Shown here piece after piece: positions 1-5,865 of a stretch of DNA of 6,117 nucleotides; the first letter of the stretch is position 1, and each line of letters begins with the position of its first letter. Position numbers and translations under genes: made by a program. The notes beneath the pieces are model-generated. The model had not been told where the DNA came from. It saw only the letters and a list, made by a program, of their open reading frames with translations, and searched no databases. The stretch is taken from the IMG/VR virus record IMGVR_UViG_2700989486_000022; one strand, written 5' to 3'. Origin of the DNA: a virus. Taxonomy: Duplodnaviria; Heunggongvirae; Uroviricota; Caudoviricetes.

Positions 1-171
1 ATTTCCCTCGTGGCTGTCAATCATGTAGCGACCATCAATAACAATCTTTCCGTCAGCGAGCTGCGGTACAGGCAGGGATTTCAGGTACATGTCATAACGA
101 TCACGCACGCGAGCGGCAAGATCACGCTCTGTGTTGAGCAGGTATTCAAGAAAGTCGTTGGCGAGAATCAT
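1..171 (-). CDS. hypothetical protein, N-terminal 57 codons only (gene continues past the left edge)
   Basis: ATG at 171-169 preceded by AAGAGGA about 8 nt upstream; reading frame open to position 1; uses preferred E. coli codons (CGT/CGC/CTG), unlike the overlapping + strand frame. N-terminus MILANDFLEYLLNTERDLAARVRDRYDMYLKSLPVPQLADGKIVIDGRYMIDSHEGN; no family recognised. Confidence 0.5.
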   Translation of the reverse strand, partial: MILANDFLEYLLNTERDLAARVRDRYDMYLKSLPVPQLADGKIVIDGRYMIDSHEGN

Positions 172-243
172 TGCGGCAATCCTCTTGTTACAGATGTGCG
201 AAGGCCTCCCGCCGCAAGGTGCAGGAAAGGCCCGGAACAGGAA

Positions 244-474
244 TTAATGGAGTTTGTTTTGCTGCTGGACGAGATCCTGAAGAGACAGGAGGTCTTCCGC
301 CAGATAGCTGAATACAGCGGCGCAGTAGTCGGCTGAAATAGTGCTGTTGAGTCTGTGCAATGTGTTGGATTGCATGATAAAGGCGATGTGTGCAGCGCGG
401 GTGAGTCTGCGATCGATTTCAGTCTGGATGTGACGACGTGCAGCGTATGCGCGCTGTTGTTTGCGGTTTGCCAT
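244..474 (-). CDS. hypothetical small basic protein (76 aa)
   Basis: ORF-track ORF; ATG at 474-472 with AGAGG about 7 nt upstream; good codon usage (CGC/CGT Arg); basic N-terminus (MANRKQQRAYAARRH); lies downstream of a - strand terminator so appears to be its own unit together with the gene at 1-171. Confidence 0.55.
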   Translation of the reverse strand: MANRKQQRAYAARRHIQTEIDRRLTRAAHIAFIMQSNTLHRLNSTISADYCAAVFSYLAEDLLSLQDLVQQQNKLH

Positions 475-484
475 GGTGTGGCCT

Positions 485-703
485 CTTTGGTTGTAAGTTT
501 TGAAAACTCACCATCCAGAGGTGGAAAACTCGGGGTGGTGAGACGTACAGGGTTTCCACAACCGGCAACCAAAGAACCCGGCCCGACCGAAGTCGGCCCC
601 ATACGCCCCACCATAATTCGTGTGCGAAAAAGACGTGGCGATACGGTACGCACAAAAAAACCGCTGGCGCGGTTGTGCGCTTTGGTTGTCAGCGGGGTGG
701 AAA
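485..703. repeat. Three copies of a bipartite motif CTTTGGTTG-(spacer)-GTGGAAA in a non-coding region: direct at 485-527 (27-nt spacer containing the palindrome AGTTTT-G-AAAACT at 496-508), inverted at 552-574 (6-nt spacer), direct at 680-703 (8-nt spacer)
   Basis: Read directly from the sequence: ctttggttg at 485-493 and 680-688, with its reverse complement caaccaaag at 566-574; gtggaaa at 521-527 and 697-703, with reverse complement gtttccac at 552-559. No convincing ORF on either strand in 475-794. Confidence 0.5.
652..676 (-). terminator. Candidate rho-independent terminator for leftward (- strand) transcription
   Basis: On the - strand: AACCGC-GCCA-GCGGTT hairpin (+ coords 659-674) immediately followed by a run of 7 T (+ strand A-run 654-660); located about 120 bp downstream of the stop of the 183-aa gene. 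Confidence 0.5.
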
Positions 704-794
704 TCCCGGCACCCGTTTTATGAGGTGCAGCGGAAATGTAACCTGACTGATTGCGGCATGGCAAGCGGTTTTTTTGTGTGTGCATAATGCTCAT

Positions 795-4104: not shown

Positions 4105-4219
4105 CTGATATCCTCCGCTATTGGTGCTCTCTTCTAACTAGCACCATTTAGAACTAGTTAGCGCAATTCGTTGTGTGTTAATTGATATATAAACTAAGTG
4201 AGTTAACTTACTATGTCAA
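4105..4219. promoter_or_regulatory. Lysogeny-switch control region between cox-like and C genes: candidate overlapping divergent promoters and an operator-like inverted repeat
   Basis: Seen in sequence: 8-bp perfect inverted repeat CTAACTAG (4134-4141) / CTAGTTAG (4154-4161) with 12-bp spacer; + strand extended -10-like TGATATATA (4183-4191) upstream of the C start; - strand TTGACA (4219-4214) spaced 17 bp from TAGTTT (4196-4191). Promoter assignment is inference. Confidence 0.45.
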
Positions 4220-5574: not shown

Positions 5575-5700
5575 AATAGGACTAAATAAGCCCATTTAAG
5601 ACTATGTGTATTAATGTAACTAATTGATATATCAAAGGGAGGCCAGTGTGCTCTGCCTCCTTCATGTCACCTTCGGGTGGCGTTGTTTTATGCGATGTAT
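5575..5700. other. Candidate attachment-site / element-chromosome junction region downstream of int
   Basis: Non-coding; AATAAGCCCATTTAAG (about 5585-5600) resembles the P2 att core as I recall it (..AATAAGCCCGTGTAAGG..); hairpins GGAGGC/GCCTCC (5638-5643/5655-5660) and CACC-TTCG-GGTG (5668-5679) followed by a T-rich tract. The exact core and junction cannot be fixed without the other end of the element. Confidence 0.35.
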
Positions 5701-5865
5701 CTCGCGATTTTTTTTTGTAACTTTTCCATCTTTTGCTTTTCTCTCCGAGCCGCTTTCCATATCTGCAATCGCATAAAAAACTCTGCTGGCGTTCACAAAT
5801 GTGCAGGGGTAAAACGTTTCCTGTAGCACCGTGAGTTATACTTTGTATAACTTAAGGAGGTGCAG

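Follow-up and report, generated by a model that had tools for sequence, protein, structure and literature searches.

A predicted IsrK-C4-type antisense RNA module overlapped by an "ash family" frame in a P88-like prophage

What is encoded at positions 475 to 794 of the window, the whole 6,117-bp stretch of DNA that was analyzed? The window comes from a P88-like prophage of the P2 family, inserted beside chpS in E. coli, and the element is a complete P2-like phage that encodes a 99-aa C repressor and Cox of its own. A sequence-only reading had noticed a bipartite motif in three copies within this region and had offered three explanations: an array of binding sites for one of the element's own HTH proteins, an origin-like or iteron-like region, or a structured noncoding RNA. 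The last of these is supported by the analysis reported here, and the first two are not. Judged from its sequence, with a probability of about 0.9, region 475–794 is an RNA control module of the type represented by immI of phages P1 and P7, the seqA-CI-seqC immunity region of P4, and the isrK locus of Gifsy-1, and it is placed in the leftward early operon. As such, it is an ordinary copy of a well-known phage antisense RNA switch and is already known. An "IsrK-C4 immunity system" has been described for P4, P1, P7, and N15 (PMC3632133), and IsrK is a structural homologue of P4 seqA, with the CI RNA pairing with both seqA and seqC (PMC4825925).

The two RNA genes and their target sites

A pattern search for CTTTGGTTG-N(5–30)-GTGGAAA returned three matches in the window, at 485–527 on the plus strand, 553–574 on the minus strand, and 680–703 on the plus strand, and none of 200 dinucleotide-preserving shuffles contained a match. 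The motif is therefore present as described, in two direct copies and one inverted copy; its half-sites are 27, 6, and 8 nt apart. An Rfam scan, which had been suggested as a check, matched isrK and C4 at full length, both above their gathering scores. The features of the module are as follows.

778–764, minus strand: 15-nt sequence CACAAAAAAACCGCU, directly upstream of, and touching, the -35 hexamer
764–735, minus strand: sigma-70-type promoter predicted by consensus scan, with -35 TTGCCA (764–759), an 18-nt spacer, -10 TACATT (740–735), and a predicted start near 728
728–654, minus strand: IsrK/P4 seqA-like leader RNA, made up of two hairpins, an unpaired linker, and the intrinsic terminator
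703–697, minus strand: a1-like target site with the sequence UUUCCAC, within the hairpin 2 loop of IsrK; half of the third motif copy of the sequence-only reading
688–680, minus strand: b1-like target site with the sequence CAACCAAAG, within the unpaired linker of the IsrK-like RNA
674–654, minus strand: intrinsic terminator of the IsrK-like RNA, a stem-loop (AACCGCGCCAGCGGUU) and then a U run (terminator scan and terminator hairpin of the Rfam isrK model)
653–619, minus strand: spacer from the IsrK terminator to C4, holding the 622–654 stem GUGCG...CGCAC, its middle variable in relatives
618–531, minus strand: C4/P4 CI-type antisense RNA, closed by a long stem and bearing two hairpins, of which hairpin 1 is at 596–583
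574–566, minus strand: b' recognition sequence CUUUGGUUG, carried by the hairpin 2 loop of C4 (predicted fold and Rfam alignment); half of the inverted motif copy
559–553, minus strand: a' recognition sequence GUGGAAA, within the unpaired C4 junction
527–521, minus strand: a2-like target site UUUCCAC, 3 nt past the 3' end of the C4 match (duplex, -8.7 kcal/mol)
520–494, minus strand: a2-b2 spacer, in which 520–507 (CUCUGGAUGGUGAG) complements the closing stem of C4 on its 3' strand (542–529) and 510–494 is the palindrome AGUUUU-C-AAAACU
493–485, minus strand: b2-like target site CAACCAAAG, overlapping AAGAGG (487–482), the Shine-Dalgarno sequence of the 76-aa gene

Both hexamers of the predicted promoter are invariant among 16 P88-like relatives, in which the spacer between them varies, and a TTGAC/TTGCC...TAnAnT pair is found at the matching position in all 10 phages compared, including the annotated P1c4 promoter of P1. 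The Rfam isrK match (RF01394; 728–654, minus strand; 64.3 bits against a gathering score of 50; E = 1.8e-12; model positions 1–77 of 77) has its 5' end 7 nt downstream of the -10 hexamer. On the other side of the promoter, CACAAAAAAACCGCU is the exact complement of the 3' half and U run of the IsrK terminator (665–651), and the wider pairing extends over 21 nt at 90% complementarity. This complement is limited to the P88-like group, F039 having a weaker 12-nt match with G·U pairs at that position, and it was thus ruled out as a general feature of the module.

Within the IsrK-like RNA, the a1-like site is the exact reverse complement of a' (duplex a':a1, -13.8 kcal/mol), and the equivalent site is annotated in P1. 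The b1-like site is likewise the exact reverse complement of b' (duplex b':b1, -13.9 kcal/mol). The Rfam c4-a1b1 model (RF03163), which does match P1 (51 bits) and Gifsy-1 (48 bits), has no match in the window at an E value of ≤1; isrK covers the region instead, and the a1 and b1 sequences themselves are present. The spacer that follows measures 35 nt in both the window and P88; it is shorter in lambdoid relatives (about 25 nt) and much longer in P4 (107 nt).

The C4 match (RF01695; 618–531, minus strand) scored 80.5 bits against a gathering score of 45 (E = 3.4e-15; model positions 1–87 of 87), and the minimum-free-energy fold of this RNA is the Rfam consensus (-43.2 kcal/mol; z = -3.4). The hairpin that had been pointed out at 583–596 is real and is hairpin 1 of this RNA; the stem GTGCG...CGCAC at 622–654 was also seen in the sequence, and the palindrome AGTTTT-G-AAAACT was located at 494–510. 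The b' sequence occupies the loop position in every homologue. A match to SNORD65 elsewhere in the window, at 2345–2423, was set aside as chance (E = 0.37; 21.7 bits against a gathering score of 41).

The duplex between b' and b2 (-14.2 kcal/mol) reaches into the Shine-Dalgarno sequence of the 76-aa gene. The gap between b2 and the ATG at 474 is 10 nt, equal to the gap between b2 and icd in P1. Pairing energies per site range from -8.7 to -14.2 kcal/mol; these are local duplex energies, which were used in place of co-folding, since co-folding C4 with these targets did not lower the energy significantly (ddG, -1.8 kcal/mol; z = -0.5) by a method that cannot model loop-loop pairing. With these sites in place, the positions of the motif copies can be revised. 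Two copies had been assigned to the presumptive promoter region of the 76-aa gene and one to the interval before the terminator. The terminator does have one copy upstream of it, and the 76-aa gene has one in its leader, but the two copies assigned to the promoter region of that gene are not there: the inverted copy is inside the C4 RNA, the first copy is in the untranslated leader, and the promoter-like site is farther upstream, at 764–735.

Covariation of the recognition sequences in related phages

Instances of the module in other phages (103 from IMG/VR) yielded 33 specificity types. The exact complement of a' is found downstream, as a2, in all 33 types and upstream, as a1, in 32 of them, and b2 abuts GAGG and an AUG in most. 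Complementarity is about twofold higher for cognate than for noncognate combinations, at 13.9 versus 7.5 for the a elements and 15.6 versus 9.1 for the b elements. These registered exact-complement tests and Watson-Crick-only runs replaced a G·U-tolerant matrix of longest complementary runs among 10 loci, which was too noisy.

The stems change in a similarly coordinated manner. In an alignment of 10 phages, 14 of the 27 C4 pairs have compensatory changes, i.e., both sides have changed. The a2-b2 spacer carries the complement of the cognate C4 3' strand in all 10 phages compared and changes together with the stem in P4, N15, and F039. Compared with P88, the closest relative (P88-type b', CUGUAGUUG), the window has two compensated changes, which are present in b', b1, and b2. 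Among the 16 P88-like relatives, variation is concentrated in the six recognition elements, and the rest of the region is highly conserved. The examination of relatives that had been proposed alongside the Rfam scan was therefore clearly positive, with respect both to compensatory stem changes and to recognition sites that change together. What was computed here comprises the assignment to the RNA families, the fold, the places where the sites lie, their covariation in all three copies, and the fact that b2 overlaps the ribosome-binding site.

The same data bear on whether the three motif copies are instead operators or iterons of a prophage HTH protein, or part of a replication origin. The bipartite motif in triplicate adjoins genes for DNA-binding proteins, and copies of a DNA site would also be expected to change together with their binding protein. 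However, the half-site spacing is unequal among the copies, and the inverted copy falls within the loop and junction of an RNA that is conserved and whose stems show compensatory changes. The sites are at the positions of experimentally defined RNA targets annotated in P1 (a1/b1 and a2/b2). Among the non-Watson-Crick positions inside helices, G·U outnumbers A·C by 33 to 14, an asymmetry which indicates RNA pairing on one strand rather than DNA sites. The module is also shared by unrelated phage backbones with differing DNA-binding proteins, and the region contains neither an iteron array nor an AT-rich unwinding element. A protein operator or iteron is thus highly improbable and was ruled out on the basis of the RNA fold context, the unequal spacing, and the excess of G·U over A·C.

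The RNA module, in contrast, recurs as a unit. The tandem of isrK followed by C4 on one strand is also found in P88, P4, N15, ST64B, Gifsy-1, PhiR49_2, and two Stx phages, and it is annotated as such in LC710660. Within E. coli, the region is present in about 21% of complete genomes, where it is labeled "ash family protein."

The downstream operon and the open frame across the module

The gene that would be controlled by the module is followed by a 121-aa gene and then by a gene for a gpA-type replication endonuclease. Two features are relevant here.

474–244, minus strand: 76-aa gene, a putative distant relative of P4 epsilon (helper derepression), predicted to be controlled by the module
438–325, minus strand: candidate Rho utilization site (C, 37%; G, 13%), the most C-rich, G-poor stretch of the leftward operon RNA in sliding 78-nt windows over positions 4110 to 1

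The 76-aa protein belongs to phrog_3688 (E = 1.7e-36), and its P88 homologue is annotated "derepression protein." Its similarity to P4 epsilon is weak (33% identity over 51 aa; BLASTP E = 7e-9 in a single comparison), and the match to the Pfam Derepression family (PF25738), at 22.3 bits, is under the cutoff of 27. The gene has an excess of substitutions at third codon positions (50/41/79; P = 0.001). A first gene of the Icd/Kil type after b2 was not found; the NCBIfam phage_ICD_like model has no match to the 76-aa protein but matches the P4 "cI" coding sequence with 73.9 bits.

By analogy with the characterized systems, the promoter-like site at 764–735 would fire leftwards, and the transcript would open with the IsrK/seqA-like leader, displaying a1 in a hairpin loop and b1 in the linker. 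The intrinsic terminator presumably stops most transcripts, and those that read through would carry the 88-nt C4/CI-like RNA. In P1 and P4, the C4/CI RNA is cut from a longer precursor by RNase P. If it is similarly processed here and acts in trans as in these relatives, its b' and a' sequences would pair with the second target copy, a2 and b2. This pairing would block ribosome binding at the 76-aa epsilon-like gene, given that b2 overlaps the Shine-Dalgarno sequence of that gene. Rho could then act on the untranslated, C-rich 76-aa gene and stop transcription ahead of the 121-aa gene and the replication endonuclease gene, a dependence suggested by the P1 and P4 mechanism. The a1 and b1 sites may compete for C4, as in Gifsy-1 IsrK, or may serve as a second pairing site that aids termination, as proposed for P4 seqA. 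The 76-aa protein may have an anti-repressor role, as in the characterized relatives.

Several observations point the other way: RF03163 does not match, the first gene is not of the Icd/Kil type, the epsilon similarity is weak with a Pfam score under the cutoff, and co-folding brings no gain. In addition, a long frame is open across both RNA genes and conserved, which suggests that translation also happens or matters here.

794–168, minus strand: 208-codon frame, spanning the promoter, IsrK, C4, and both targets and overlapping the whole 76-aa gene in the +1 frame

The sequence-only reading had seen no credible open reading frame on either strand. That statement does not hold, as the 208-codon frame spans the region, scores just above a Pfam cutoff, and is open in related phages. 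It starts at a TGA-ATG directly after the 183-aa gene and ends in an ATGA shared with the next gene's start codon. The 208-aa product matches Phage_ASH (PF10554) with 29.7 bits against a cutoff of 26 over residues 19–113, corresponding to DNA positions 740–456, so that the profile maps onto isrK, C4, and the a2/b2 targets. The same domain covers the C4 region of the P4 "cI" coding sequence and, in ST64B and PhiR49_2, the N termini of Rha-type genes. Of 16 distinct P88-like sequences, 14 have the frame open, among them indel variants in which it is shifted; the frame has no stops per subregion versus 15 to 47 in the other frames, and the probability of its being open, calculated from composition, is 4e-4. 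Furthermore, the +1 frame of the 76-aa gene is free of stops in all 15 homologues, in which 2 to 3.5 would be expected.

These findings support the possibility that the region is also a translated gene, an "ash"- or eta-like frame into which ribosomes from the 183-aa gene read through, overriding the RNA module. A domain shared with the reading frames of P4, ST64B, and PhiR49_2, a start and an end that abut the neighboring genes, the openness of the frame in relatives, and the stop-free +1 frame of the 76-aa gene all argue for it. So do two precedents. In P4, eta spans CI, and translation of eta prevents termination (PMC10111431). In Gifsy-1, orf45 begins at an AUG inside the 5' end of C4, and expression of anrP needs the translation of orf45 (PMC4825925). 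On the other side, the frame has no third-position excess over 475–794 (51/57/51; P = 0.81), i.e., no codon periodicity, whereas the 76-aa gene has such an excess in its own frame, where the 45% C at third positions alone would suppress stops in the +1 frame. Among the 33 wider specificity types, about half do not keep the 208-codon frame intact, and the ATG at 794 has no obvious Shine-Dalgarno sequence upstream of it. We place translation of the frame at somewhat less than even odds; it complements the RNA module and does not replace it.

A more specific proposal, which we offer tentatively and hold to be doubtful, is that in P88-like phages of the P2 family the IsrK-C4 module lies within a frame of about 200 codons that is kept open for the transit of ribosomes and not for a protein sequence. 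Translation of the transcripts from the early promoter would run across the module, letting them escape C4 and Rho, while transcripts from the internal promoter would be under C4 control. The 15-nt upstream complement of the IsrK terminator might help the early-promoter transcripts. If this is correct, it would extend the "nested gene" logic of P4 eta and kil to an out-of-frame overlap in a complete phage, and the "ash family protein" would be an open reading frame that is translated but unconstrained in sequence. A translated frame would mean that a single stretch of DNA acts as a promoter, as two RNA genes, as the leader of an mRNA, and as a read-through frame at once.

The annotation of the frame suggests a different interpretation. 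PGAP/RefSeq labels window positions 516–785 "ash family protein; incomplete; missing C-terminus," a label that is also used in other genomes, and on this basis the region could be a decayed "ash family" pseudogene with no function of its own. A homology search pointing to a decayed pseudogene had been named beforehand as evidence against a functional region, and the RefSeq label is formally such a result. However, the label is a translation of RNA genes: the Ash profile maps exactly onto isrK, C4, and a2/b2, both RNA models match at full length, and the frame lacks codon periodicity. Decay would bring stops and frameshifts, yet the frame stays open, and conservation is high outside the six recognition elements, which change coordinately. 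The pseudogene interpretation was rejected and has very little probability. Since the profile is the translation of isrK, C4, and a2/b2, in a region that is under RNA constraints and has no codon periodicity, the "ash family protein" label instead hides two RNA genes.

The module adds little to phage biology, as the IsrK/seqA-C4/CI system has been characterized in P1, P7, P4, N15, and Gifsy-1, and the Rfam models detect this copy directly. Its value is mainly for annotation. The RefSeq gene or pseudogene label masks two regulatory RNA genes in about one-fifth of complete E. coli genomes, as well as the control point of an epsilon-like gene and a replication gene in a common P2-like prophage. 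The diversity of the recognition sequences (33 types in a small sample and two compensated changes relative to P88) could also allow simple typing of RNA-level immunity groups.

Comparison with known systems

The order and spacing of the elements are those of immI in P1 and P7: a promoter, a1, b1, C4, a2 at 3 nt past C4, b2 at 10 nt before the start codon and over the ribosome-binding site, and the first open reading frame. The P1 c4 RNA scores 68.8 bits with RF01695 and likewise has b' in a hairpin loop and a' in a junction, and in both systems a few bases that differ between relatives set specificity. However, the recognition sequences differ, and the first open reading frame here is the epsilon-like 76-aa gene rather than the Icd cell division inhibitor. 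There is no anti-repressor of the Ant1/2 type; instead, the 121-aa gene and the gpA-type replication gene follow. The leader in the window passes the Rfam threshold as a full IsrK-type RNA, and that of P1 scores only 35 bits. The host phage is P2-like, not P1-like.

The immunity region of P4 has the same isrK and C4 tandem on one strand and the same long, Phage_ASH-bearing open reading frame over the RNA gene. In both, a promoter or promoter-like site lies inside the long frame, the constitutive promoter of P4 being internal to eta (PMC10111431), and a gene downstream is epsilon itself in P4 and a putative epsilon relative in the window, with replication genes farther on. P4 differs in the length of the spacer between seqA/isrK and CI (107 nt versus 35 nt in the window) and in its first translated gene after seqC, the Icd-like kil, which is in frame within eta and is followed by epsilon. 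In the window, the epsilon-like gene comes first and is overlapped out of frame by the long open reading frame. Furthermore, P4 is a satellite, while the element in the window is a complete P2-like phage.

The Salmonella Gifsy-1 isrK-orf45/STnc1160-anrP locus also has isrK (79 bits) followed by C4 (69 bits), with a short IsrK RNA that has an intrinsic terminator and with read-through into a gene of the anti-repressor type. In both loci, an AUG at the 5' end of C4 opens an orf45-equivalent frame (PMC4825925). In Gifsy-1, this frame ends after 45 codons at the start of anrP, whereas in the window it continues for 148 codons from that AUG, and the downstream gene is of another protein family. The outcome demonstrated for Gifsy-1 comprises trans-activation of the read-through mRNA by IsrK, Hfq binding, and AntQ toxicity (PMC4825925).

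RNA content and genomic setting of region 475-794

The window shares 99.4% identity with E. coli BEC1-S17-ESBL-09 and covers the left end of a prophage of the P88-like type (Peduoviridae, genus Xuanwuvirus, P2 family) that adjoins chpS-chpB. The rightward genes encode an integrase and the presumed C-type repressor, an HTH protein of 99 aa; the terminal stretch of the prophage, lying between the integrase gene and chpS (5575-5865), presumably contains the attachment site. The leftward operon opens with the Cox gene and several small genes, followed by an 81-aa winged-helix gene, an Ead/Ea22-like gene, the 183-aa HTH gene, region 475-794, the 76-aa gene, a 121-aa gene and, just beyond the window edge, a gene for a gpA-type replication endonuclease.

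The bipartite motif that the sequence-only reading had described in three copies is borne out: CTTTGGTTG-N(5-30)-GTGGAAA matches the window at 485-527 (+), 680-703 (+), and 553-574 (-), and never in 200 dinucleotide-preserving shuffles. The palindrome (494-510), hairpin (583-596), and stem (622-654) reported with it were each found, and an intrinsic terminator lies on the minus strand at 674-654. Among the explanations offered for this organization, a structured noncoding RNA proved right, as scanning the full window against Rfam gave two strong minus-strand matches within the region, both with full model coverage. The elements of the module are as follows.

764-735, minus: promoter-like site TTGCCA-18-TACATT, predicted start near 728
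728-654, minus: isrK (RF01394), 64.3 bits (gathering score 50), E 1.8e-12
703-697, minus: a1, UUUCCAC, in the IsrK-like leader
688-680, minus: b1, CAACCAAAG, in the IsrK-like leader
618-531, minus: C4 antisense RNA (RF01695), 80.5 bits (gathering score 45), E 3.4e-15
574-566, minus: b', CUUUGGUUG, loop of C4 hairpin 2, half of the inverted motif copy
559-553, minus: a', GUGGAAA, single-stranded junction of C4, other half of the inverted copy
527-521, minus: a2, UUUCCAC, downstream of C4
493-485, minus: b2, CAACCAAAG, downstream of C4, running into the Shine-Dalgarno sequence
487-482, minus: Shine-Dalgarno AAGAGG of the 76-aa gene (ATG at 474)

The C4 segment folds into the three-helix shape of its family (-43.2 kcal/mol, z -3.4), and when the window is aligned with nine further phages, both sides have changed in 14 of 27 pairs. 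The two direct motif copies are the reverse complements of b' and a' within one transcript. Directly past the U run of the terminator, GUGCG (654-650, minus) has two possible partners, both CGCAC, one upstream of the terminator stem (677-681) and one at 626-622 (minus); depending on the partner, the IsrK terminator would be extended in one of two ways.

Covariation of recognition and target sequences

Recognition and target sequences were taken from 10 named phages and from 103 IMG/VR instances, located by a conserved 16-mer of the C4 5' end, which represent 33 distinct a'/b' types. An exact complement of the 7-nt a' is present downstream in all 33 types and upstream in 32. Complementarity is about twice as high for cognate as for non-cognate combinations (a, 13.9 versus 7.5; b, 15.6 versus 9.1), and a GAGG-type ribosome-binding site and AUG adjoin b2 in most types. 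The b' of the window (CUUUGGUUG) and that of P88 (CUGUAGUUG) differ at two positions, both compensated in b1 and b2 (CAACCAAAG versus CAACUACAG). Thus, relatives show the covariation that the sequence-only reading had proposed to look for, in that a'/b' and their targets change together, alongside compensatory stem changes in C4. Local duplex energies are -14.2 kcal/mol for b':b2, -8.7 for a':a2, -13.9 for b':b1, and -13.8 for a':a1.

Among 16 P88-like sequences (77-95% identical), variation within 475-794 clusters in the six recognition elements and C4 hairpin 1, with almost no change in the promoter hexamers and stems. Non-Watson-Crick positions within helices are G.U in 33 cases and A.C in 14 (P = 0.008), which fits pairing of RNA of minus-strand sense rather than DNA sites. 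The suggestions of a binding-site array or an origin were wrong.

The recognition sequences are highly diverse. The a' and b' sequences reassort independently among instances, and elements with the same 76-aa gene family carry at least seven combinations. In ST64B, a' reads UUUCCAC, which reverse-complements the GUGGAAA of the window.

The ash label and the overlapping open frame

In RefSeq, 516-785 is annotated "ash family protein" and marked incomplete, and the region generally carries this label. The region is present in 1,138 of 5,426 complete E. coli genomes (≥80% coverage), in up to four copies per genome, and among the matches listed no ncRNA feature lies under these copies. The 208-codon frame 794..168 (minus) matches Pfam Phage_ASH (29.7 bits; cut-off, 26) across DNA 740-456, which is isrK, C4, and a2/b2. 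In P4, the historical "cI" CDS likewise has a Phage_ASH domain over the C4 region, followed by an Icd-like domain. The 208-codon frame has no codon periodicity over 475-794 (51/57/51), whereas the 76-aa gene is periodic in its own frame (50/41/79; P = 0.001). This rules out a decayed pseudogene, the outcome that the sequence-only reading had said would overturn its view, and indicates that the ash protein family largely mirrors translated RNA genes.

Deposited CDS crossing C4/isrK include the P4 "cI gene product" (locus L003, 8168-8584), sb41 of ST64B, a hypothetical protein of PhiR49_2, and gene 32 of N15, a "transcriptional repressor" (the last three at L007 883-2040, L005 928-1776, and L006 1306-1596); all four have the Phage_ASH domain. 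In lambdoid phages, the Phage_ASH frame is continuous with a downstream Rha-type gene.

The 208-codon frame begins at TGA-ATG directly behind the 183-aa gene, ends with ATGA on the next start codon, encloses the promoter, IsrK, C4, and both target pairs, and covers all of the 76-aa gene in that gene's +1 frame. Of 16 distinct P88-like sequences, 14 keep it open, among them variants frame-shifted by a b'-loop indel, and it has 0 stops per sub-region versus 15 to 47 in the other two frames; from composition, the probability of 208 open codons is 4e-4. The +1 frame of the 76-aa gene has no stops in 15 of 15 homologues (2 to 3.5 expected), possibly as a side effect of its C-rich third codon positions (45% C). 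The frame resembles P4 eta and Gifsy-1 orf45. In P4, eta spans CI and contains a constitutive promoter, and termination is prevented when eta is translated from upstream transcripts (PMC10111431); the Gifsy-1 orf45 begins with an AUG inside the C4 5' end, and anrP expression requires its translation (PMC4825925). By analogy, we tentatively propose, at rather less than even odds, that upstream transcripts would be translated across the module and thereby escape its control.

Like this conserved frame, two complementarities are side observations. Within the a2-b2 spacer, 507-520 (minus) is complementary to 529-542, which is the 3' strand of the stem that closes C4 (UGGUGAG), and the equivalent spacer changes along with the stem (P4, GGCGAUAGC; N15, GGUGGUAGC; Stx phage F039, GCGGUGG). 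The unprocessed transcript may thus pair in an alternative way, of which we found no description. Immediately ahead of the -35 hexamer, the 15-nt CACAAAAAAACCGCU (764-778, minus) is the exact complement of 651-665, the 3' half of the IsrK terminator and its U run. Being present only in transcripts begun upstream, it could counter termination. This complement is confined to the P88-like group, although F039 has a weaker match at the corresponding position.

Proposed mechanism and relation to characterized systems

The best-supported mechanism is, by analogy, that of the characterized relatives. Transcription would start near 728 from the promoter-like site and stop at the intrinsic terminator of the IsrK-like leader, and read-through would yield C4 RNA, whose b' and a' would pair with b2 and a2 and so mask the ribosome-binding site of the 76-aa gene. 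Judged by its sequence, the 76-aa protein is probably distantly homologous to P4 epsilon (33% identity across 51 aa, E 7e-9); it matches phrog_3688 (1.7e-36) and scores 22.3 bits, under the cut-off, against Pfam Derepression. Scored in 78-nt windows, the entire 4.1-kb leftward operon RNA is richest in C and poorest in G inside the 76-aa gene, at 325-438 (minus; C 37%, G 13%). This stretch may be a Rho-utilization site and is compatible with Rho-dependent termination when the 76-aa gene is untranslated; such termination would shut off the 121-aa and replication genes downstream as well. C4 processing, trans-repression, Rho dependence, and an anti-repressor role here are what we infer from those relatives.

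The element is an ordinary example of a known, curated system and, as it is detected by existing Rfam models, is already known. Weinberg et al. 2010 (PMC2864571) list both C4 and c4-a1b1 as RNA motifs. Published accounts present IsrK as a structural homologue of P4 seqA and CI RNA as pairing with seqA and seqC (PMC4825925), and an "IsrK-C4 immunity system" as common to P4, P1, P7, and N15 (PMC3632133). The isrK-C4 tandem is shared by P88, N15, ST64B, Gifsy-1, PhiR49_2, and two Stx phages, one of whose records already annotates both RNAs. In P4, isrK (8692-8615) and C4 (8507-8420) lie in tandem ahead of the epsilon "helper derepression" gene. For P1, GenBank annotates the experimentally defined immI region (promoters, a1, b1, c4 RNA, a2, b2, icd, and ant), and the window matches it in both order and spacing, with a2 3 nt past C4 and 10 nt from b2 to the start codon.
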